DNA of 64,000 nt from Eukaryota sp. GEM-RC1 (Eukaryota): the NCBI GenBank assembly GCA_040285855.1, contig JAUFOQ010000002.1, positions 496,001-560,000 on the forward strand, read 5' to 3'. The notes below the pieces were generated by a model that searched no databases, was not told the origin of the DNA, and saw only the letters and a program-made list of their open reading frames with translations. How positions within the stretch are numbered: the first letter of the stretch is position 1; the number at the start of each line of letters is the position of its first letter. Shown one piece after another: positions 13,868 through 57,006 of this stretch. The translations under genes and the position numbers were made by a program.

Positions 13868-14165
13868 AAAACGTTTCAGAACTCCCAAAGCTCTTTTCAA
13901 CCCTGCCAAACCTGATTTATGATTGCTCTTAGCTATTATTTACCTGAACCTGCCATGATTGGTCTTGAATCTCCCGCTATTCATGAACAAACCTACAAGT
14001 CTATCATGAATCGACAAACGTATGGAGAAGGAAATGATCAACCAAGCTCCTCCTGCTGTAAAGATTAAGATTGTTGCTCCCCCAGAAAGAAAGTACTCTG
14101 TATAGATTGGAGGTTCCATTTTGTAATCTTTGACCACCTATGAATCTATGTGGATTACTCGTGAA
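13868..14165 (+). pseudogene. ACT: Actin C-terminal fragment (pseudogene)
   Basis: RFRTPKALFNPA, MIGLESPAIHEQTYKSIM and [33 protein letters not shown]; two stops, an internal deletion and a 40-bp insertion flanked by CCTGCCA. Confidence 0.85.
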
Positions 14166-14487
14166 CATGTTATTATACCCTCTATGCGTATTGATTGTCC
14201 GTTAGGGGATTTTCCCTGTGTTCAGTAGTTCGACTCCGTTTTAAATGATAGTTCAGATAAATATGAGTTTGTGCTGGAATAAATCACCTATATATATAGT
14301 AAATCGCAACTCAAAGTGACATTCAAGTTACAATTTTTACTACTTCGACAACTGCTCAATATCGATGAATTGCTTTAGTTTCAGATATTGGGGTCTTGTA
14401 GTGTATTCCTTGTTATAAAGATACTAGTATGTCATTGTGCTCATTTTCAACATCTTTCATAAATCATGTATATCTTATAGTTTTCAA

Positions 14488-14558
14488 CAAATGATGTATC
14501 ACCAAATGTTGTTGTAACAAATGTTGTACTACTAAATGTTGTTGTTACATATGTTGTC
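14488..14558 (+). repeat. About five imperfect 15-bp tandem repeats (CAAATGTTGT...)
   Basis: caaatgatgtatcac / caaatgttgttgtaa / caaatgttgtactac / taaatgttgttgtta / catatgttgtc. Confidence 0.75.
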
Positions 14559-14595
14559 AGTTTCAGTATGACAAGATGTCACTGTAGACAACATC

Positions 14596-14603
14596 TATAA
14601 ATA
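14596..14603 (+). promoter_or_regulatory. Candidate TATA box for the Fanzor polyprotein
   Basis: TATAAATA about 35 nt upstream of the first in-frame ATG. Confidence 0.35.
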
Positions 14604-14698
14604 GTGAGAATTTATATTTGAGTCCAATTGCTTGGAGAGATGTCTATGGATACTTCTAGTTGTGTCCTGAGATCTCTCTCCTTCTTCTTTTCATCAAC

Positions 14699-14952
14699 CA
14701 AACACGATCACGTGTTTAAGGATATGCCAAGAGAACATATTTTCTCGAGGCGTTCCTTTGTTCTACCTTTGTTGCATGGTTTGTTTACTCACTTTTCGTC
14801 ACTCAAACACGATCACGTGTTTAAGGATGTGCCAAGAGAACATATTTTCTCGAGGCGTTCCTTTGTTTATACTCTTCTTTCTAACTTTTCGTCATTCAAA
14901 CACGATCACGTGTTTAAGGATATGCCAAGAGAACATATTTTCTCGAGGCGTT
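14699..14952 (+). repeat. Three 56-bp direct repeats separated by 49- and 37-bp spacers
   Basis: CAAACACGATCACGTGTTTAAGGATRTGCCAAGAGAACATATTTTCTCGAGGCGTT at 14699, 14804 and 14897. Confidence 0.95.
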
Positions 14953-15137
14953 TCTTTTTCTCTCATGGATTCTCGAATTATTCTATGCTGTTTCTTCTTT
15001 TGTTGTTGTTAGAGAAAGTCATGAGTTCGTCTCAGTCGTTGTTTTGTTTTTACGATCATAAAGTCAGCACTTGTATGGTTTTTCTACAATCAAGTCTCCA
15101 GTCATCACAATTTCTCCGTGATTTGACTATCGATGGA

Positions 15138-15161
15138 GACATAGAGTCAAACCCTGGTCCT
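15138..15161 (+). other. 2A-like StopGo ribosome-skipping motif
   Basis: FLRDLTIDGDIESNPGP matches D(V/I)ExNPGP. Confidence 0.85.
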
Positions 15162-15790
15162 TTTGTCACTGAGGAAGGAATCACCACATTGAAGCCCTCC
15201 GTATGGCTCGATGATTCTGTTGTTGACTTTTATGGTGAGTACATCACCGAGAATAGTGAGTTATGCCAGTTTTTCCGTATCGGGAATCTTCATGCTGCAG
15301 TGAGTTATGGCAATTTTGACACATTAGCTCTTGAATTTCTAAATGTTCAGAATTCAATGCGAGAAACTGGGAAAAGGTTTTTATTTATTTTAATTAACGA
15401 TGGTGTCTTTCGTGGTACATCAACTCATTGGACTTTACTTGTTTGTGACATTGATAGTACGTCATTTTTTCACTTGATCCAATGTACACTGACAGTTCAA
15501 CTCAACTTTCATTTGACGTTTTAACTCAAAATGATCAAGTTGTAAGTACATTACAGGAATATTTGCGTCATTTTGGTAATTTTTCCAATTTAGGAAAGCT
15601 CCCAGTTATTAAACAGCAAACTTTTAATGACTGTGGACCATTTATCTTAATGTATATGCAAAGATTTGTTCATTTGGCATCAACATCAGACAATTTCCAG
15701 AAAATTATGTTTCAAGTCCAAGGTTATGTCGATTATGATGCTTTTGAAATGAGAAAACAAGTTCTAAATCTAATAGCAACCACGCATTCT
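15162..15790 (+). CDS. Peptidase C48 (SENP8/Ulp1-like) domain 1
   Basis: LKPSVWLDDSVVDFY, INDGVFRGTSTHWTLLVCD, FFH(F)D and QQTFNDCGPF give H-D-C plus the oxyanion Q. One frameshift near 15474. Confidence 0.85.
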
Positions 15791-16139
15791 ATTCCTTTTG
15801 CTATACTTGCTGTAAGTATTGTACATGAGTACTTTTCAAACAACATTCAAGCACATGTTCAAGAACACAGTGACAGAGTTCATTCTACACCTTTGCAACA
15901 ACAAATGAATAGATCTGCTGGTACTTCTGAAATAGCCGAACATCCAACAGTAGTTTCATCTCCTGATGAAACTCGACAAGTGCCATTGACTATACCCAAT
16001 CAACTTATAGACTCAAATCGTACAAGAAAAACTCGTCAATCTAGAAAATATCCTCCGAAAAAGAAGAAATTTTCTCAAAAATATCAACTTATTCAACATC
16101 AACATCGTGGAATTCTAACACAATCTCGTCCTAGACCAC

Positions 16140-16790
16140 TTTTACTAAGATCTGATCAAATTGACACACTGAAACCAAATGTACTGCTTCATGATTCTGT
16201 CATTGACTATGTTGGTCAGTACATTGCTCAAAAGAGTAATCTATGCGAGTTCTTTGAAGTAGCCAACATTCAAGATGCAAACAATCTTTCACAATATAAC
16301 ATAATGTTTGAACAATTTAGAGAGGTTCAATTATCAATGGAAAAATCCAGTAAAAGACACACTAAAAAGTGTAAGAAACGTTTCTTGTTTATTCCAATAC
16401 ATGACGGTCTTTTTGGTACAACAGCTACTCACTGGTCACTGTTAATCTGTGATATTGAAAATAAACAATACTTCTCTATTGACTCAATGTGTACAGAAGA
16501 TCAACATTCTCAGTTTTCTAACACTTTATCACGTATTGACAATGTCATTTCACAATTACAACAATTCCTGTTTGATATGGCAAATTTCAGCTACATAGCT
16601 AGAGTACCAGTTCAACAAGTCCAAACTCTTAATGACTGTGGTCTATCTATTCTAATGTATATGAATAAAATTGTCGAGAGTGAATCAAAATCAACAAATC
16701 TTTTCGAAATTCTGTCTAAAGTCTCTAATTGTGTTGTTTATAATCCATTTGAAATGAGAAAACAAATACTGTCTCAAATCGTTACTACTC
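16140..16790 (+). CDS. Peptidase C48 (SENP8/Ulp1-like) domain 2
   Basis: LKPNVLLHDSVIDY, THWSLLICD, FSIDS and QVQTLNDCGL. Confidence 0.85.
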
Positions 16791-17404
16791 ACCCTGATGA
16801 AGATCACCCTGATGAATACCGACAATATGTATGTACTCATGCCCAAGGTATTTTAAATGAGTTTTATTCTGATGAGATTGAATCACCTGTTAATCAACCT
16901 GTACAGTGTCAATCTGAAAGTTTAACTCCTGAAACAATGGTAGATGATAGTAGTTACAAGGAAACGGTGTCAAAGCTCACTTATCAAAACTTTCTCAAAA
17001 GTTTACCTGGAAATTTATCTAACCGGAAAAAGAAACGTCTTTTGAAGTTAAAAATGATTGAACAAGCGCTGGAAGAAGCTGAAGAATTATTTCAAGAAAG
17101 TTATCATAACTTTAGTCGTCCAGAGTTAAAAGATCTTCCAGAAATAAATTTACCAACTCCAAAAATAAATGTTGCTGCTTGTGAGAAACCTGATACAACA
17201 GAAACAGCAGAAACAATTGAGTCATCTGACACCACTGAACCAACAACAGCAACAGGTAATAGAAAGACAACAGTTGCCAAAAGGAAAACCACCAAACCAA
17301 AAGCAAGTGGAGTATCAAATGCGACAAAGAGTTTGAAACCTCCTAAAAAACCAATGATTGAGTTTCTCAAACATTCCCAATTACCAAATAACTCTAATCA
17401 TTGT

Positions 17405-18130
17405 TCAATATTGTCTTTTGATATTGAAACTAGAGAAATTGATCAAATTCCTGCAGAAACACTTACAGAGGAGTTGGATGATCAAAGAAAGTACGAGAAT
17501 GAATCTCTCAAAATGAAAAGTGATGCAGAAAAAGAAGTGTGGATTCAAAACCAACAAGTTTTTATGATTTCTGGAGTGTTTGGTCATTTTATAAAAGATC
17601 AATTTTACCTTCAAGACAATTTTGTTGCAACTTTAGAGTTGACTCATGAATCTGATGTTGAACTGCCACCTGATTGTAGAAACCTTCGATTTTTTGAAAA
17701 CGAAAAACAGTTACTAGAGTTTTTTGTCAACTATTTGAATGATAAAAATCCCTCAGTTTTAACTGGATTTAACATAACTGACTTCGATAATGTTGTTTTA
17801 GGCAACAGGATTGTTACACTTGGAGTCGACTTTCCAGAACCAATGCTAGATGAAACAACTAAATCTCATTTATCATCTCTATGGCAAAATGTTCGTTCTG
17901 AATGGGCTGGTAGAATTGTCTGTGATTCATACGTTTATGCTAAGCAATTTATTGTTTCAAAATGTTCAAAGTCTTTAAGATCATTAAGTTGATTTTTATT
18001 AAACGAATCTAAAGGACGTCTTCATGACGAATTTCACCACTTATTGCCTATTGATTGTGTTGATGAAAGACCTCAAGAAGTTGTAAACTATTGCTTCAAA
18101 GATAGTGTAATAGCATTGAAGTTGTTTTTA
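17405..18130 (+). CDS. Family-B DNA polymerase-type DEDDy 3'-5' exonuclease domain; no polymerase domain follows
   Basis: ExoI SFDIET, ExoII LTGFNITDFD, ExoIII YCFKD; in-frame TGA at 17990-17992. Confidence 0.85.
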
Positions 18131-18149
18131 TTGTTTCAATCAAATAAAA

Positions 18150-20425
18150 TCGTTCGTCCAACTTTTGTAACACATAAAACTACACTCAAGTCTATTGTCA
18201 AACATTTTGGATTAACGCTATTACTCGATTATTATGCTCAATTGTTTCACAAACTTAGAATGCACACTTCCTATTGTTTGAAGCCGTTTTTATTACACAT
18301 GGATAAGAATGGTGAAAAATTACCTTTAATTACAAGGAAAGAAGTAGAACATATTCAAACTCTGTTAAGAAACATCTCTGCTGAACATCATGAGATTAGA
18401 TTATGTAATCAAGGACGACCTCCTACATTTAATGAACACTTGAAAAACTTTGTTTTAGAAGAATACAAACAAGTAATGCTCAACAATGGAGGAATTCCAC
18501 TCTTTCCAGCTGCTCATTCCTCACGACTTATGGCAATGGTTGGTGAAACTATTAAATCGAATTTGGACACCAATATTAAAATGCGATATGCTCAATACAT
18601 TGACAAATTTATTAATGTTTATTTTCAAAAGACTGATCAAGAAGAAAAAATGCCAAAAAAGAACAATCTGTTTTTCGTTGGAGACTTAGACAAGTTAAAA
18701 ATGTCTTTCTTGAAGGTAACAGAAATGACATTCCAAAAACCCCTGCAGAAATAAAACAATTTATTCAAAGATGTAATACAGAAATTCTTCAAGAGGACAG
18801 TAACAGAAGTTTGAACATTGCAGGTAAAATTAAACTTCTGTGGGCAACTAACGACTATGTTGAAGGATTGTTTAGAGAGAGATATTTTATTGATGTTCTC
18901 TTTCCACCATCAATTGATATTCAAAATGCTAATGGTGTTTAGAAAAAGAAAGTCGTTAAATCTCTACTAAAAATCAGTTCGTGAACATCCTCAATCCTTT
19001 ATTAAATCTGCGATTCAAATAAATAACTATCTTGAAAGTGAAGGAGCAAGTGCTTACAATGTAATTCCGATTGTTCGTCAAGTCACACCAGGTTTCTTTG
19101 AAATAGACACACAAAGTCTTTGGGGAATACTACGTTCCACTTTGTCAACAAAGCAAGTGTATGTCAAGAAAAGACAATCTGAGTGGAATTCACAAACTGA
19201 AATTCAAAAATGTCTCCTGCGGAACAAAATCAATTCTGGTCCTACTTTTTCAACTTTAATCGTCCATTTATAAAGAAAGGTTATAAGTTTAACAATACCA
19301 TTAAAACTGATGGTTTCTCTGCCTGTGTTGAACTCACCAGAGAGGACTGTGTGGGAATGTCCTTTAAACCAGACAGTGCAAAGTTCTCTAGTAAAGAAGA
19401 ATATGTTCAAGACTATGATGTTGAAGAGTTTTCATTGAAAACAAAAGTGTTTATTGATCCTGGAAAAACAGATTTACTCTATTTTTGTTCAGAGAAAGTA
19501 AATAGGCCATTTCCTGAACAAAAAGCCCGAGAAAGAAGAGACAAAGAATATGAGTGGCTAAGATTGACAGAGACAGAATGGTCCAGATGGTCAAGGGTTC
19601 ATCAAAAGTTTAGAAGGGGAAAGAAAAAAGAATTCATTCTCCAAGATGGAAAAACAGTTGAAGAAGAAGAGAAAATTCCAAAGAAAATTCAAAATCGACT
19701 CTTTATGACACATTCTATGACTATGTGGGTTCCAAACTAACAGTTATTGAATCAACATTTGACTACTACTGTTTGATGATATGGCGCATTCAAAAATGCA
19801 AAGATACGTCCATATTCAAAAAACAGAAAGTAAGTTGTTGAAAAATATGACTGCAAAAGGATGGAATAAAAATGACTGTGTATTGATGTTTGGTGACAAT
19901 GGTAATAAGAGGCAGAACCTAAAACACCTCCGATCAAGTAGAGGTGTGGGTTGGAGAAAACTTCTTTAGGTGAAATGATTACAATATTGTTCTTGTAGAT
20001 GAGAGTTACACGTCTTCAAAGTGTCCTACTTGTTGGAAGCCAGTTAAAGTGTTCAAAGATTTCAGTAATCCAAAACCATGGAAAAGAGAGAAGAAACCTC
20101 TGGTAAAGTGTCACGCTTTGTTGAGATGTAAGTCCCAAGAATGTAGAGAAGAATGTCATGGTACACGTCTTCAAAGTGTCCTACTTGTTGGAAGCCAGTT
20201 AAAGTGTTCAAAGATTTCAGTAATCCAAAACCATGGAAAAGAGAGAAGAAACCTCTGGTAAAGTGTCACGCTTTGTTGAGATGTAAGTCCCAAGAATGTA
20301 GAGAAGAATGTCATGGTAGCGCCAAGGTTTGGAATCGTAACAAGTTGGCATGTATCAACATCAAAACCATTGTGGAGCATCATTTGGAGCGGGGTCTAGG
20401 AGTTAGACCCAGTTATTTGTCATAG
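18150..20425 (+). pseudogene. Fanzor1 (eukaryotic TnpB homologue), disrupted
   Basis: KTTLKSIV, FEIDTQSL, IKTDGFSAC, RuvC-I FIDPG, VLMFGD, RuvC-II LVDESYTSSKCPTC, CHALLRC...C, WNRNKLACINI and terminal RPSYL. Confidence 0.88.
20007..20316 (+). repeat. Perfect 155-bp tandem duplication of the Fanzor zinc-finger region
   Basis: 20007-20161 is identical to 20162-20316. Confidence 0.92.
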
Positions 20426-20790
20426 TCATAGTCATAGCGTTTTTACTACAGTGAATCTGTAGCATTATTGAATCTTAGAATTTGTTAGACATCTTCTCAG
20501 ATTCAATCATGATTCATGAGATTCAATCATTAATGTGTACAATATCAAATTATCACACTTAACTAACACTACTTTATCCCTCCATCACTCTTGTAAACAT
20601 CACAGCCAATGAATACGACTCCTTAAATCCAATCCCACAACAATATTCACACATCACTTTACGAAATTCCTCCAATATTCCTAAACATTGTTCATCACAA
20701 AACAAAATATCATTTAAATCTTGTATCGACACAACAAAAGTAGAAATTTTTGTATAGGGACAGAATTTTTAAAGGGACATTAAGGTTTCG
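20426..20790 (+). ncRNA. Candidate Fanzor omegaRNA scaffold / element right end
   Basis: Lies just after the Fanzor stop; hairpins CTACAG-tgaat-CTGTAG (20446-20462) and ATTGAATCTTAGAA...TTCTCAGATTCAAT (20467-20507). Confidence 0.4.
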
Positions 20791-20900
20791 TGTAACACTC
20801 AACTGTTTATTCATATACAGTACATACATTCAGTAACAATACATACAGCTGCATCTCAGAGGGCAGAATTAAATACCAGAGTAATACTGCTAGTGGTACT

Positions 20901-21910
20901 CAGGGGTTTGAAATATGGCATGGGCCATATTATGGATTGTGTCCAAATCAGTTGCCGCCATAATGGCCATAATCAATTACGCTTCCCATACTTATGGCCA
21001 TTATGGACCCCATAACAACAGCAACAACAATACAGTTTATTTTCAATAAAAAATAACAAGGAATCAGACCTTATATAACATATCTGAACTTTCAATCTAT
21101 AAAAACCTCTTCTTCATCATTGTCGTCTCTCAAAATGGATGAAACAGTTTCCTGGTCGCACTGGTCTTTGTACATCATTTGAAATAGCTGCCTTTCAAGA
21201 TTTGCATTAGTTAGAGAGAACCATAACAAAACCATTAGCTGTCGGGCACGACTGAAGAGTCGTTCGACTGGGTTGGGTTTACTGTCACTTGTTGAAATGG
21301 GAAACACTGACTTCTCATTTCCTTCTACACAAATTACAGTAATTAGTGTACGTAACACTAATTGTTGCAAAAACTTATGGAAAATACTTTTGGCAACAAA
21401 TAGTGTAACTGTCGAAAAAACTATGTTATAGAAAAACGATAATGTAGTTTGTTCTTCGGCTTTGCTATATTCTTGAGCAACTGAATCACTGGCTTCTACC
21501 TCTTGACTTACTTCTACTGAGGCCCAAACTTGACAACGATCAGTAACTTGGTCAAGACTCGGTATTCGAGCCTACTGTTTTGGGGGAGGTTGGATAGTGT
21601 GTTAAGATAATTAATTGACAACAATAACACCACTATTTCCACTCATCCTAGCAAAATTGATCAACAGTTTTTGTCAAGGAATATATTTTATAGGTTTTAC
21701 CGATCACAGAACCCTAAAATCCACTGTTTAAATGTATTTATTACTGCTGTTTCCCCATAAGTTGGTTAATTGAAATCTAGAAATTATGGACCCCCATATA
21801 TGGCCATGATATGGGACGAATAGCCATAATTGATTTTGACGTTCCATACTTATGGTATGGCCATTATGGGGAATTATGGATATGGGTCCATGCCGTATTT
21901 CAAACCCCTG
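20901..21910 (-). mobile_element. Deleted hAT DNA transposon
   Basis: TIRs CAGGGGTTTGAAATAYGGCATGG, flanking (A)GTGGTAC duplication, and an internal remnant PNPVERLFSRAR...SLTNANLERQLF resembling the hAT C-terminal dimerisation domain. Confidence 0.85.
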
Positions 21911-22074
21911 AGTGGTACCACATCTGTCACGTCATAGGAAATGTCCTATTCCAATATCTTTCACTTTTCTTAAGAAATGGACCAATTAAGAAGGAAACTT
22001 CAATAGAAATTCCGTTTTCAAAACGAACGATGAAGCGCCTTTGATTTTACTATTGTACATTAACCTTTGTGAAT

Positions 22075-22689
22075 CTAGGGACAGAAAAGGTGCTCATTGA
22101 ACTGCCGATCGGATGATTTCAACCTCTGGTGGTCTGAGAAATATCTGACATCAAATAACACACCATGCATGTTTGGATCGGTTATCCTGGTTTCATAGTT
22201 AAATTTATCAGCAACACAATATTCCACGTGAACAGAATCAGCTTCAGGACCAGCGTAAGGTATATCAGCTTCTAGTACTGTACACTTGTGATTTCCAGAA
22301 CTAGATTCATGAAGTTCTTCTGCATAATAAGGTGGTAAAGATAAACGTATGAAGTTCTCAATATTTGATCGCTCCTGATCCGTAATGTCTCTGCCATAAC
22401 AGATATCATCTCCTTTGTGCTTTGTGTAAACATATCCGTCTTCTAGTTTGAACATATGCTCCGCAGAGCTATCGGAACGATGTAAGATTTGTTTTCTGTG
22501 GTCCACTGAGTACCGAGTAGATGGATCTTCATTAATGATGAAGGAGACTTGCCCATGAGCCCAAGTTTGTATCAAGACAAATACCATCATAAAGTAGGTT
22601 AATACTAAAAATGGACACCAGCAGTAACAGAAGCATTTAAAAAAAGTTGATCCTAAAGAACGTTGAGTTGGGGGATTCCAAGTCGTCAA
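22075..22689 (-). CDS. Hypothetical single-pass membrane protein (start uncertain)
   Basis: Cys-rich juxtamembrane segment, hydrophobic helix and a polar ectodomain. Confidence 0.5.
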   Translation of the reverse strand: MTTWNPPTQRSLGSTFFKCFCYCWCPFLVLTYFMMVFVLIQTWAHGQVSFIINEDPSTRYSVDHRKQILHRSDSSAEHMFKLEDGYVYTKHKGDDICYGRDITDQERSNIENFIRLSLPPYYAEELHESSSGNHKCTVLEADIPYAGPEADSVHVEYCVADKFNYETRITDPNMHGVLFDVRYFSDHQRLKSSDRQFNEHLFCP

Positions 22690-23536
22690 AGGCGGCTTTA
22701 GTTAGCAGTCTGATTCATCAAACAGCGGTTTTGGATCGTTTGGATCCTGTTTGAGTTTTTGCCATTATGTTGTAGTGGTGGGGAATTTTATAAGAAATCA
22801 TTCTACAACTAGTGCTAAATGCTCTCACACTGTGTCACACATCATGTGGTGGGCCCTAGTATCTGATAGAGTACTCAAAACATCCCAAAAAGGCGCTATA
22901 AAAAACGACCTGCTGAGGATTGTTATTACAAAAATTGACTCCAACTCGATAGCCACAAGTACATTCCGCGGCAGAACAGTTCGACTAGGAAAGATTTTCA
23001 GAAGAACTTTCAGTATTGTTTATTGTGCCTTCAGAAGTGAAATGCGTCAAAATATCTCAAATGTCCACATTTCTGCGCATTTTGTTCAACTGTAATTTCA
23101 TTGTAGAAGAAAACTGCTAGTGTTTGTTGTCGATACAAATTCACGTCATAATTCTTAAAGAAAAACAGAATTCAATTGAGAATTGTACTTTAACAAATAT
23201 TTAAACATGTGTTACGTCAGTTTATAGATGATGAGGACAAAATTTAATATCACATTAATATCTATCAATTACTAGCTACAGGAACTTCCTGGTCAGTTCT
23301 TATACATTACTTAAACTTAGTGATATTGTTTACGAAATTTGGACTCCGATAGGAACCGAGAAAACATCAAACGATTTTGCATAATTGCTAAGCCACTTCA
23401 CCAATAGTACCGAAAATAGAAATATCTAATGTAACAAACACAAATTTTAATTCAGTTTAGCATCATCTCTGAAATACAAATCAATTTTACGTTTTTCAGC
23501 TTGTTTTAAGTTGGTTGATACCTTTTGTGGTTAAGC

Positions 23537-23897
23537 CAGGGCTCTTCAAAAAATAATTGCAAAATGCAATTATTGCAATAACACTGTATTGCAGTATTGC
23601 AACTGCTTGAAATATTGCAGGACGGTATTGCGTGTTGTTTCGTTATTGCAGTTATTGTAAGCAATACTCAACCAATTACCGAAACCGTTTTTTTGTTGTT
23701 TTTTATCATGATCTAGTAGTAGTGTGGTGTATTCAAAGCATAAATTATAAAATTGGCGGGTGTTGTAAATACCAGTGTATAAAATAACAGTAATGTACCA
23801 CTTAAGCAGCAAATTTGTCGTTGAAAAATACTGCAGTACAGTATTGCAGCAACATAAATTCTCACAATATATTGCAATTATTTTTTGAAGTGTCCTG
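23537..23897. mobile_element. 361-bp hAT-type MITE
   Basis: TIRs CAGG(GCT/ACA)CTTCAAAAAATAATTGCAA with a perfect 8-bp TSD GGTTAAGC at 23529-23536 and 23898-23905. Confidence 0.9.
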
Positions 23898-24547
23898 GGT
23901 TAAGCTATTAACATAAGTCTGAACACATGGATCTAATGTTGCAACAACAAGGATGGTTTGTCTGGAATCAATAAAAGAAACATGTAAGTCGCCTCGACGA
24001 GAACTATTAATAAACTAAAGACCTAACTTACTAAATAGAGGTTCACCTTTGGTATAAAATCCATGAGCTTTACACATTTCAAAATGTAACATCTCTGATA
24101 GCATTATAAAGAACATAACGAAATTGAATATTATTTGGGACAATTTAATTTAACAGAATTGTTGAGTAATTCTGCAGACAACAATCCCAAAAGTAAGCGC
24201 ATATTTAATTCCAAGCCTCATCAGATCACGGCAAACCAAAAGGACGTGGTTGTTGAGTGATTAAACAAGATGAATTCTTAATATCATTTAAGAAAGCAGC
24301 CAAAACTGGGTTTATAAGTTTTAGTAACACTAAAACGATTTTTGAAATCCAGTTTTTCAAATGCCTTCTTAAGCTTATTTTGAAGGTTATTTACGCACAA
24401 CGAGAGAGACAATAGAGATTTCTACGTACTCCACAGTAAATGACTCGGAAAACAGTTGTTCCAATTCACTAAATAGTCTTCGTTAGTGATTAAAGAGTTT
24501 AACCATCTGAAAATTAATGAGATTTTCACAGTCTATTACACATTTCA

Positions 24548-26740: not shown

Positions 26741-28154
26741 AGTCTCACTGAGACTATTTAAATGAAACTAATTTGTTCAGAGACCAAATTGACAAACTAT
26801 TTCGGACAAATCGTAAAAAATAGGATGAACAAACGTTTTGATCATGTGTTATGGTTGAATCGGATCGTTTTTACTGGTTTTACAACAATTCCCCTAACCA
26901 TCTCCAAAGCTTTGTAAGCAGTGAGTTCCTTTTATGAGGACAAAGCTCTTGTAAGATTTGATAGCGATGGGCTGTTGTTTTAATGATATCAAATTTTAGC
27001 TGTTTGATCTATTACATTTAAAATATATTAAATTTACGTAAAAAAACAAAGTATATAAAGTTGGCACTCATTGTATTGTTTCGTATACAATGGTTAATTT
27101 AATTGCCGCAAATTAAATCTTTAAGTATCAATAAATATAAAGAAAATCTCTTCCATTTATCCATACAATTGAGGCCCGGTATTCTACAAAACTCTCTTTC
27201 GAATGACAGTCAATTGAATGCGGCTCGAAAGGTCCTGTCACCATCATCAACATAACGATACATTGTGGTCATTTTACAGAAACTGTCAAAATTGCCTGAA
27301 ACGGATTAGTAGATGTTGATGAAGCTGTTATCTCACATAATCCACCTATTCTGTGTGAGTCAACAAAAATGCCTTTTAGCGATTAAAACGCTGATTAATC
27401 TTCATGGGTCTCAATAAAATGACAATATTGGATCGACCATAAGAAGAAGAAGGCCATATACGTTTAGACGAGTCAAAAACTGTCCATTATATTGGATTTC
27501 CCCTTACCATGACTTGAACTATGACATATATAAAAATATTTTGTTTTTATTTGTGTATTATTTTGTTTTAATGGTATTTATTTCACATTAATTTTTGGCA
27601 CTTTTGGATGATCAAACTATTTTAACTTATCTTATGAGAGGGCCTGTAGTACACTGTACGAGCACAGTAGATAATTTGAGCGGAATAAACCATAATATTT
27701 TGCTGTTCTGCCCGAACACATCTTTAAAATTTGATAATCCAAGTAATCTGTGTGTATCTTTCGATTACTTTTTTCTGTTTCCTTTCCTATGATGTAGCTT
27801 TAAAGACGTTCATGTCTCTTCATAGCCAATCTTTGGTTTTGTTTAAGCACTCATTCCTGGACCCCTCATCCGTTGAAGAATTTTGGGCTTCTGATGGTAT
27901 TCTGGACAGTACACGCTATGGTTAAACGTGTACTCTCTTAGCAACTGCGATGAACACTTAAACATCACTCAATCGTACATTGCTTTTGATGAATATATGC
28001 TGAATTTTGTGGTGGGACTAAGAATCCCAGTAATTAGTAGTTTTTCGCAACGAATAATAATAAGAAATGATATAGTAATCATATAATTAGTCTTTCCTTT
28101 GATGTAGTCTCAGCATCAAATTGGTCTCATCAGATAAATAGTCTCAGTGAGACT
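26741..28154. mobile_element. Candidate 1.4-kb TIR element
   Basis: About 50-bp imperfect inverted ends that start with the palindrome AGTCTCA(C/G)TGAGACT followed by ATTTA. No TSD found. Confidence 0.5.
26800..27046 (+). mobile_element. 5'-truncated non-LTR retrotransposon 3' end
   Basis: KRFDHVLWLNRIVFT resembles KVFNSAVWINRIMFA at 54.8 kb; ends in an A-run; homologous to the antisense insert at 37826-37959. Confidence 0.65.
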
Positions 28155-37114: not shown

Positions 37115-37407
37115 GAATAAGCTATTTTGTTAATATTATTCTACTGACATTTGGCCAGTATTCTTGTTGTTGAAGATTGTTTTTGGTTGGTTTGACGTGA
37201 CCGATTTTTTGTGATTTGTTTATTGTTCCGATTATTTTAAATTCAGGGATTTCCGTTGAATACTAGTACAATCTTCCGGATGAGGTGCAATAAACATCGG
37301 AACAATTACGTGTTAAAAAACGACTTATAGACCGAGATAAAAACAATCTCTAAAACGCAACACTTTTGAAATTTGAACATGAATAATTTGCTATTGAAAT
37401 CTAAAAA

Positions 37408-37479
37408 TGCTCCCACAGAGGATTGAACTCTGGACCTATTCCTTACAAAAGAAGCGCTCTACCACTGAGCTATAGGAGC
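37408..37479 (-). tRNA. tRNA-Thr(UGU)
   Basis: Cloverleaf GCTCCTA..GCTCAGTGGTAGAGC..TT-TGT-AA..GAGTTCAATCCTC..TGGGAGCA, followed by a T5 Pol III terminator. Confidence 0.9.
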
Positions 37480-37649
37480 AATCATTGCTGTTTGTTTGGT
37501 TCATCTTGGACCTGTTTTACCCATCCGGTTCCACAACAAGAAATACATAATAACAGTGTACACTGGTCACAATATTAGTCTCTGAGGAACATTGAGAGTG
37601 ATTTGTGTTTTAGTTGATCAAACATTTTTGTGACTAATTCTTGAAAGCC

Positions 37650-38400
37650 TGGATTATTACTTGCCACGGCCAAGGAAAATATCACACTTTTGCAATTTTT
37701 TTAATGGATGTTTCTAATAGCTCTGCTTCATGTCTCATTACTCAAATCCCTCAAGTTTACGGTCTTTTCTTGATGATAACTCTTGGTCATTAAACATGCG
37801 TTTACGGTCATATATTTGGCCTGATTTTTTAGATATATTTGTATATTTGTATATTCTTATTATAAATGTACTAGATCAAATAACTAGAATTTGATATCAT
37901 GAAAACAACACCCGTCGCTATCAAACCGTACAACAGCTTTGTCCTCATAAAACGAACTGATTTGGCCTGATAACCTTCCTCATAATTTGAAATGCCAATG
38001 TGATCGATCTGTAAAACTTACACATGTATTGAATTGTAACAGTTGTATTTCTTTTTAGAAGTCAGGTTCATGATTCAGTAAGGGGTCAATTATATTGTAT
38101 GTGTAAATCTTATGGAATAGTTTTCTTTTTTTTAGAACCAGTTCTGGCTGGGTTGGTTGATGATTCAGATGTTGACAAATCGTTTGGAAATAGCCGTGGT
38201 GATGTCATATTTCCTGGTCTCGATGGATCTTTCATTATTGCTGATGTTATGTCTATCGACGTTTATCATGGTCCCAACAAGAAACTTGCTAAATCTAATA
38301 CTAAAAACCCTCTGTTGATTGGTGAAAAATTTAAAAAAGAACAACATGTGCTAAATTGAAATTAGTGAATTCGGTTCCAAACACGAATTACTTGTTTGCT
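37650..38400 (+). mobile_element. Degenerate non-LTR retrotransposon fragment (CCHC knuckle + restriction-like endonuclease, CRE-like)
   Basis: LKCQCDRSVKLTHVLNC...VHDSVRGQL...LEP...RGDVIFP...IADV...EKFK. Confidence 0.7.
37826..37959 (-). mobile_element. 134-bp antisense retroposed 3'-end insert with a 12-bp TSD
   Basis: ATTTGGCCTGAT at 37814-37825 and 37960-37971; starts with a T-run; its reverse complement matches 26923-27030. Confidence 0.8.
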
Positions 38401-55680: not shown

Positions 55681-55952
55681 TTGAAATGCAGGAGAGGCAA
55701 AGATAGGAAAAAAATACAAAAAAATGCCACCATTGAAATCCATTGGTACAGTCGCTAGACGTTTAAGAAACTAATATCGACGGTTTGTCTGTTGAAGAGT
55801 ATGTAACATATTTGGATTTATGAAGGGAATTAATAAAATTACCGGCACAGAATCAATCAATAGTTTTAATCTGGTAATCCATACTGTCCCGACATTCATG
55901 TGCTTAAATAATTGCAGAAGTAAGCAAAACAATTGTTGTTCAAAAATAAAAA

Positions 55953-56024
55953 TGCTCCCACAGAGGATTGAACTCTGGACCTATTCCTTACAAAAGAAGC
56001 GCTCTACCACTGAGCTATAGGAGC
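55953..56024 (-). tRNA. tRNA-Thr(UGU), identical to the copy at 37408
   Basis: Same 72-nt cloverleaf and T-run terminator. Confidence 0.9.
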
Positions 56025-57006
56025 AATGAAAACGTTCTTTTCTGTACGAAATGAACAATCCGAAGATTGCATCCGATGATATCCAGGGAAAACGCGGCAC
56101 TGCCAGGAACATCTCTTTGTGTTTCAATTTGAAGCTTTCAACAATTAGTCTTTATGTGGTAATATCAGACCCACTGTACAAGGTTATATATCTTCTTTTG
56201 GTAAACTGTGTTAGGAATACTGTACGGTTTTCAATCAAAATTTTTGCTTGAGTAGGTTAGCGTTTGTACTGTTTCGATCCATGCGCAGATACTTTAGTTC
56301 AGAACGTAACATTTTTGAAAAATTTAATCAATATATACTATACTAGTAAACGTTTACTTATGTATATAGAATCAGGGACCAAATAACATTGATTGAAACT
56401 AGAATTACCGCTTTTTAATATCCACATAATTTGGAAGTTCACTTAGATCTCCATTAGTCACAATCAGACTACATTTGCCGAACTAATCGTTACACCAATG
56501 TTGGGGGAGATAATTCTATTCAATCCATCACTAGCATGGTAAGAGATCGATCTAATATGATGCACATTTCGAAAATTGAAAAAATACTACAGTGTAGTAG
56601 TAACACCACACCACTGTAGAATTTTGTATAGTGACATCACTTTGGGATTCAATAATTATCCTTTCTGTGTCACTTTACCAAAAGAAAAAAACACCAAAAA
56701 TCAAACTGTTACCATGAATAAGAAGAAGTTGGTGGCAAGGAAACGAGTGTCGATAACAAGCGCGTTTTTGTTCAATCCTAGATAACTTTTAAAAAAAGAT
56801 GTATTTGGATTTTATGTGTTGATAATAAATTAATGAGTACATACGAATAAATCTTTCTTGGAAACAATTCTTTTAATATACTTACAGATGCTAGGTGAGC
56901 TTCCAAAGCAACAATCAGAAGGATAAAACAATTGTGACACCAAATTTAACTGAAAACTCTTCGGAAAACGCGAGTTTCCACTAAAAAAAGGTACATGTAC
57001 AAGATA

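Follow-up and report, generated by a model that had tools for sequence, protein, structure and literature searches.

A likely functional 2A peptide heads the protease–exonuclease–Fanzor protein of a multi-copy Skoliomonas family

Among viral 2A (StopGo) peptides, those of motif class 4 carry the upstream hexamer DLTxDG, with D at p12 and S at p15. According to the available part of PMC12846837, a tested example of this class reaches almost 100% StopGo in reticulocyte lysate, most of its upstream mutants lose nearly all activity, and H at p14 is a rare variant that is ~90% active or more when tested. For two iflaviruses, the available part of PMC8623073 gives ~99% for the 9-mer GDIESNPGP. As described in the accessible text of PMC3708506 and PMC3894237, APE-type non-LTR retrotransposons (L1Tc, Ingi, CR1, L2, Rex1, and Crack) have one long ORF with a 2A near its N-terminus, just ahead of the first enzyme domain, and some 2A-bearing non-LTR ORFs carry deubiquitinase domains (bioRxiv 2026.06.17.732966, accessible part). 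Ginger1 and Mutator DNA transposons have captured an Ulp1/C48 domain on the element protein, where it accompanies a DDE transposase; no 2A is described there in the available part of PMC2836005. The Spu-1 and SfAV Fanzor elements contain no transposase, as far as their accessible descriptions go.

Here we analyze a 64-kb stretch of DNA (hereafter, the window) from Eukaryota sp. GEM-RC1, which the accessible part of PMC11316075 describes as Skoliomonas sp. GEMRC, a free-living soda-lake metamonad with a Nanopore R9.4 and Illumina genome. The window carries a copy of an element that shares the long ORF and the N-terminal 2A with the APE-type retrotransposons, and its Ulp1 domains recall the deubiquitinase domains of some of them and the captured domain of Ginger1 and Mutator. 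Unlike the non-LTR elements, the Skoliomonas chain has Ulp1, an exonuclease, and an RNA-guided nuclease as cargo, and reverse transcriptase and APE/RLE endonuclease are absent by Pfam from its intact relatives P0195 and P0219; in this respect it does not fit a non-LTR retrotransposon. Like Spu-1 and SfAV, it has no transposase by Pfam, either in the element ORFs or in the intact chains. Unlike known Fanzor1 proteins, it has a PolB exonuclease joined in frame at the N-terminus, together with Ulp1 domains and a 2A, its chain is 1800–1900 aa long versus 600–750 aa, and terminal inverted repeats are not found. No report of a natural 2A in a Fanzor element is found among the papers listed by open full-text searches, nor one of an exonuclease–Fanzor fusion, although supplements of Fanzor surveys or subscription journals could list such proteins. 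In the accessible main text of the Fanzor papers searched, the word 'exonuclease' is absent and 'protease' appears in methods only. The available and possibly incomplete supplements of two 2A surveys make no mention of the Skoliomonas genomes or the searched peptides.

The 2A 20-mer SSQFLRDLTIDGDIESNPG/P is encoded at positions 15102–15161 (+ strand), and skipping is predicted between the Gly codon (15156–15158) and the Pro codon (15159–15161). It lies in an open + strand frame (14622–15524) that reads ...SSQFLRDLTIDGDIESNPGPFVTEEGITTLKPSVWLDD..., with coding frame on both sides, namely a 173-aa open leader (predicted to be translated) before it and a protease after it. NPGP, and with it D(V/I)ExNPGP, occurs once in the six frames of the window. 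The chance expectation of the core D(V/I)ExNPGP in the window is 3.5e-5, falling to 1.2e-6 with the preceding G and to 1e-11 with RDLTxxG. DIESNPGP (15138–15161) has the 2A core (D/G/C/N)(V/I)ExNPGP, and the upstream hexamer DLTIDG, with D at p12 and S at p15, is that of motif 4. Upstream of the hexamer, F occupies the site where motif 4 prefers W, and some family copies deviate further (H for R/K, or E for D), which may weaken the case for skipping. The window 2A is thus a canonical member of a StopGo class, from which skipping at G/P is predicted; no StopGo test on a metamonad ribosome is found among the papers listed by a literature search. The first protease domain begins ~3 codons past the Pro by tblastn and HMM, in line with the first-pass annotation, which placed the 2A immediately before this domain.

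Viral peptides are among the closest known counterparts. The Skoliomonas 2A has the core octamer, G at p11, DLTxDG, D at p12, and S at p15 in common with the motif class 4 peptides in the available part of PMC12846837, and one contig sequence of this class, RDLTQDGDIESNPGP (L067), differs from the window 2A at one of 15 positions. Unlike the viral peptides, it sits in a chromosomal multi-copy element and has F instead of the usual W. Scans with DLTxDG-class patterns yield 62 viral and 49 metagenome loci, all on contigs shorter than 10.5 kb, and HMMs detect Ulp1, exonuclease, or Fanzor at none of these 111 loci. An RNA virus is a plausible donor of the Skoliomonas 2A.

Downstream of the 2A, the window encodes two Ulp1/SENP-family proteases, a PolB-type 3'-5' exonuclease, and a Fanzor1, all on the + strand. 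Protease 1 (15168–15769) has the triad motifs THWTLL (His, 15423), SLDP (Asp, 15470), and QTFNDCG (Cys, 15617) and is split by a frameshift near 15471. Protease 2 (16148–16774) is a diverged tandem duplicate in which the His, Asp, and Cys motifs are present. The peptide QSRPRP (16121–16138) precedes protease 2 much as ESNPGP precedes protease 1, in almost the same register, and may be a decayed 2A duplicate. The exonuclease (17402–18214) has the motifs DIETRE, GFNITDFD, and YCFKDS and an in-frame TGA at 17990. Pfam recognizes two stretches of Peptidase_C48 (E 3.6e-12) in the window, and DNA_pol_B_exo1 with E 2e-13. The Fanzor1 (18150–20425), which is joined in frame to the exonuclease in relatives, has RuvC residues D (19450), E (19992), and N (20330) but contains six frameshifts and two stops, and shares 87% identity with P0008 across 247 columns. 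An exact 155-nt tandem duplication in its zinc-finger region (20007–20316, +) is either a lesion or a mis-assembly. Two hairpins after the stop codon (20426–20540, +) are a candidate omega-RNA scaffold, placed there by analogy with known Fanzor loci; their folding z is -1.8, and 5 of 200 shuffles fold equally well.

Compared with stored relatives, the window copy contains seven frameshifts, near 15471, 18653, 18970, 19208, 19675, 19791, and 19958, and three in-frame stops (17990, 18940, and 19971). An apparent break near 19100 is left uncounted, being seen against P0018 and absent against P0008. All seven frameshifts fall in A or T runs of 4–6 bases, so they fit Nanopore error or slippage; P0001 carries an identical shifted tail at its end. 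The nonsense codons argue for real decay. The window copy is decayed or mis-assembled, and the full chain cannot be produced from it as assembled. After a skip, its sequence would yield a truncated protease piece of ~120 aa only. Because this copy is broken, the functional claim applies to the family rather than to the locus as assembled. The protease–exonuclease–Fanzor chain proposed in the first-pass annotation accordingly stands as the family design, intact in the species RCL, and fails for the window copy, which is interrupted from 15471.

The family set comprises 97 proteins from the genomes of three Skoliomonas protists of soda lakes, collected by homolog searches, phmmer with P0008, and cluster look-ups, and mapped with purpose-built HMMs; these relatives are automatic gene models at the protein level, in which starts, introns, and leaders may be mis-called. 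A query with the 2A-protease region gives five matches at 81–93% identity, all from Eukaryota sp. GEM-RC1, and a protein encoded by the window falls in one cluster with GEM-RC1 2A-protease matches. A common design is found in all three genomes, namely a variable leader, a 2A, one or two Ulp1 domains, a PolB-type exonuclease, and Fanzor1. In the species RCL, P0195 (1846 aa) and P0219 (1905 aa) are predicted as uninterrupted chains with the order leader, WIRNLVLDGDVEANPGP, Ulp1, Ulp1, linker, exonuclease, Fanzor, so the window design recurs in a second species. P0172 and P0207 carry a single protease. In one subfamily (P0119, P0204, and P0205), WIKDLTADGDVHKNPGP stands immediately ahead of the exonuclease. 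Two S. litria proteins, P0185 and P0182, have LLTEHGDVEANPGP behind a protease tail and ahead of the linker-exonuclease-Fanzor part.

Two more GEM-RC1 subfamilies have PFPKDLTADGDIESNPGP, Ulp1, and a diverged exonuclease; HMMs detect no Fanzor in their models, which end early. High-copy subfamilies of GEM-RC1 (P0194–P0200 and cluster members) combine 2A-Ulp1 with a diverged exonuclease in which the DIET motif is missing. By eye, the terminal stretch of P0231 looks like a Fanzor N-lobe. Some members speak against a universal 2A. P0031 and P0187, of one exonuclease–Fanzor subfamily, show no 2A in the 59–92 residues predicted before the exonuclease. P0169 (RCL1_001071) has the same linker-exonuclease-Fanzor part, with a DEAH-box helicase in front of it in place of the 2A-Ulp1 module, by its predicted sequence either a cargo swap or a fused gene model.

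The 2A is present in 38 of the 97 proteins, exactly once in each, the rest being mostly fragments; the counts are biased, as two of the homolog searches had 2A-containing queries. The 2A-free queries and the clusters still give seven 2A-bearing proteins of four subfamilies (P0014, P0119, P0172, P0182, P0185, P0204, and P0205). Conservation among copies, which had been suggested as a check on the 2A assignment, is strong both within the GEM-RC1 genome and in two other species. Of the 34 proteins in which the first-listed Ulp1 starts intact behind 30 or more residues, 33 have the 2A within 30 aa of it, the sole miss being the second protease of the window. Among 8 subfamilies, with one representative taken from each, average pairwise identity reaches 0.83 in GDIESNPGP and 0.57 in RDLTxD, versus 0.08 in the leader and 0.07 in the next 29 aa, and the proteases after the 2A share 19–42% identity. 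In the predicted proteins, the 2A is the only conserved island between the leader and the first enzyme domain. Part of its sameness within a genome may stem from recombination rather than selection.

The FVTEE body is paired with several leader types, and two leader types are each found on both the LSKD and the VTQE bodies. Judged from these predicted proteins, leaders and bodies are shuffled, and their meeting point is the 2A. The predicted leaders of the relatives are 32–247 aa long, with in-frame repeats in 17 of 38 (units of 27–58 residues). By sequence, the 5' region is open and in frame with the 2A, forming a leader that differs in length, sequence, and number of repeats from copy to copy and between subfamilies.

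In the window, the T-rich leader (40% T) extends in frame with the 2A from the ATG at 14640 to 15101 (+), with seven in-frame ATGs; 154 codons are open from this ATG, or 173 aa when counted up to the Gly. The leader has no in-frame stop, versus three and six in the other two frames. Stop-free sequences arise in 6 of 20000 shuffles, or in 176 of 20000 once the repeats are collapsed. A TATA-like box, TATAAATA (14596–14603, +), lies 44 nt before the first in-frame ATG and might act as a promoter, although the octamer occurs four times in the window with both strands counted. A 15/30-nt tandem array (14486–14557) upstream of this box may be part of the left end of the element. Three copies of a repeat of ~80 nt (14680–14957, +) are spaced by 105 and 93 nt, which preserves the frame. 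Each is predicted to form a double hairpin, AAACACG-N4-CGTGTTT followed by a long stem, with folding z of -5.4, -3.6, and -5.8. Rfam gives nothing near the gathering score over 13900–22100 and assigns no ribozyme or IRES to the repeat. A second leader type (P0002–P0004) keeps KHxxVF, which is compatible with the same palindrome (AAACAC-N6-GTGTTT), and differs in the stem after it. A protein-inferred 17-bp stem is possible in P0003 and P0004 (0 and 2 of 150 shuffles) and at chance level in P0002, P0009, and P0001 (138, 20, and 31 of 150). The KHxxVF leader type hints at a conserved structured repeat, with mixed results at the level of the inferred stem.

We conclude, with a probability of roughly two in three, that a likely functional 2A heads the protease–exonuclease–Fanzor protein of this family and would serve as a universal joint, separating the enzymes from any leader upstream of it. 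A ribosome that starts at any in-frame AUG would, as expected from the 2A class, release the leader at the Gly and go on. Whatever the start codon and leader type, the product after the skip would be an Ulp1(-Ulp1)-exonuclease-Fanzor protein that begins with Pro. This reading agrees with the first-pass annotation, which inferred release of the repeat leader and a defined Pro N-terminus. The 5' end would thereby be free to gain, lose, or swap repeat modules while the enzyme stays unchanged. In the S. litria subfamily, the other 2A, seen after the protease, would release the protease itself; leader release is therefore not the sole use of the 2A.

The defined Pro N-terminus is a mechanical result of the skip, and nuclease rationing is a live alternative purpose. 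According to this alternative, the 2A skips but is kept mainly because ribosome drop-off limits the amount of a genotoxic Fanzor–exonuclease. Rationing has been proposed for L1Tc and other non-LTR elements in the accessible text of PMC3708506 and PMC3894237, and 59–70% of tested retrotransposon-linked 2A-like peptides lowered protein abundance (bioRxiv 2026.06.17.732966, accessible part). In line with it, the downstream cargo is a DNA nuclease whose active sites look intact. However, the tested example of the DLTxDG class scored almost 100% StopGo, and rationing leaves the shuffling of leaders and bodies and the post-protease 2A of S. litria unexplained. We regard it as unlikely to be the main purpose, but it is compatible with the joint as a second role.

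The hydrophobicity of some leaders raises the question of whether the leader is a signal-like or membrane peptide, so that the 2A gives dual targeting or membrane-docked translation. Such 2A-linked dual targeting reportedly occurs in sea-urchin NLR proteins. A hydrophobic stretch lies 30–60 residues before the skip site in four of the ten leader types, the window included, with a maximum 11-residue Kyte–Doolittle mean of 2.55–3.0. However, when the T-rich DNA is shuffled and kept free of stops, 24% of the resulting sequences match the window value, the other six leader types stay below 2.0, and two sister leaders of the same body reach 1.05 and 1.45. Neither a common start motif nor a fixed distance is seen. 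A targeting leader is distinctly improbable.

After the joint, the exonuclease and the Fanzor are assigned by both sequence and predicted fold, and the proteases by sequence. The proteases have a His-Asp-Cys triad with Gln and a family match, as expected for C48. A profile of eight Fanzor1 relatives finds PpFz1 (8e-50) and SpuFz1 (6e-46) as best PDB matches. The AlphaFold model of the exonuclease–Fanzor P0170 (pLDDT 80.5, pTM 0.69) matches SpuFz1, PpFz1, and GtFz1 first and PolB exonuclease domains next, with E 2e-27 and TM 0.82 over the target for SpuFz1. The relatives fit a split RuvC with a zinc finger by sequence and by predicted fold, and resemble SpuFz1, PpFz1, and GtFz1. Among skoliomonad members whose end is intact, nearly all have Asn as the third RuvC residue and one has Asp, the residue seen in 50 other matches. 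A catalytically dead Fanzor on account of this Asn is rejected, since the same D-E-N triad is active in GtFz1 (PMC11423790, available part) and D606N raised SpuFz1 activity in the accessible text. Self-processing of the chain by Ulp1 at Gly-Gly was also considered and dropped, as Gly-Gly before the exonuclease is seen, by eye, in one subfamily only.

The exonuclease fusion appears confined to this group in our searches. When P0008, an exonuclease–Fanzor protein, is compared by phmmer with 1.84 billion representatives, the exonuclease is present in six of the best 150 of 218 matches, all six skoliomonad, and a 2A-type motif in one of the best 150 (P0119). A tree built from the C-terminal half of Fanzor (43 rows and 400 columns, with three rows less than half filled) has a branch that separates 13 skoliomonad-type rows, of which three are unnamed, from 30 other Fanzor1 rows (100/99, with the bootstrap not fully settled). 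The ESM Atlas gives generic Ulp1 and PolB-exonuclease clusters and nothing else.

C48 proteases and PolB exonucleases are both present in DNA viruses or Polinton-like elements, and Fanzors are known in large DNA viruses. Since all three parts occur in such viruses, the element could be a relic of one, with a maturation protease, a polymerase fragment, and a Fanzor, and with the 2A as a passenger. However, the proteases match the cellular SENP2, Ulp1, and SENP8 about equally well (E ~1e-13), versus 0.32 for the viral pS273R, and Pfam detects neither a polymerase catalytic domain nor a capsid, ATPase, or integrase domain in the element ORFs or the intact relatives. A search with the Fanzor alignment finds no relative among the 369 metagenome and 39 viral pattern matches scanned, and the 2A is retained across deep subfamilies. 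A viral relic is thus very improbable. Chance resemblance, or a dead motif spread by copying, is hardly credible, for although the window locus itself is decayed, the 2A is a conserved island over three species whose changes fall mostly at tolerated positions.

A search for the ends of the element finds no match of at least 12 nt between 13900–14700 and 20420–20900, with shorter matches at chance level, and a search for a target-site duplication is negative. By analogy, our default guess is that the element would be mobilized in trans, as other non-autonomous Fanzor elements. The neighbors of the locus are ordinary eukaryotic genes, such as those for HSP90, a VHS protein, and kinesins. A decayed actin fragment (13961–14165, +) with an internal deletion and two stops lies to the left of the element; insertion into an actin gene is rejected, as the fragment has no continuation on the right. 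Just to the right of the element, a non-coding element of ~1 kb (20898–21913) has 29-nt terminal inverted repeats (93%) and near-duplicated flanks of 8–9 nt, and is presumably a hAT-type MITE. Inverted-repeat pairs at 23531–23903, at 26741–28154, and at 26924–27025 with 37858–37958 could belong to further small transposons. Two near-identical tRNA-Thr(TGT) genes are located at 37407–37480 and at 55952–56025 (-).

A broader picture is possible but doubtful. The family might be a Fanzor element that has no transposase and is expressed in the manner of an RNA-virus polyprotein, with the 2A as a joint behind exchangeable structured repeat leaders that drive a single protein. Its RNA-guided nuclease would cut, its fused 3'-5' exonuclease would trim at the break, its proteases would act on SUMO/NEDD8 to lift silencing or steer repair, and the element would spread through break-induced copying instead of a transposase.

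With skipping as predicted, natural StopGo recoding would no longer be confined to RNA viruses and retrotransposons, but would extend to an element that bears a Fanzor and, judged by position, to metamonad ribosomes. The family has eight natural 2A variants, including the rare DVHKNPGP of subfamily RCL-C, which matches the p14=H variant that is active at ~90% or more when tested. It also brings to light a Fanzor1 clade in which an exonuclease is naturally fused in frame, the active site is D-E-N, and the N-terminal modules can be swapped. The intact predicted members (KAL0227605.1, KAL0211769.1, and KAL0226007.1) make it possible to test directly what Fanzors do for their elements, whether repair turns out differently with a fused exonuclease, and why elements keep N-terminal 2As, for a clean N-terminus or for dose control.
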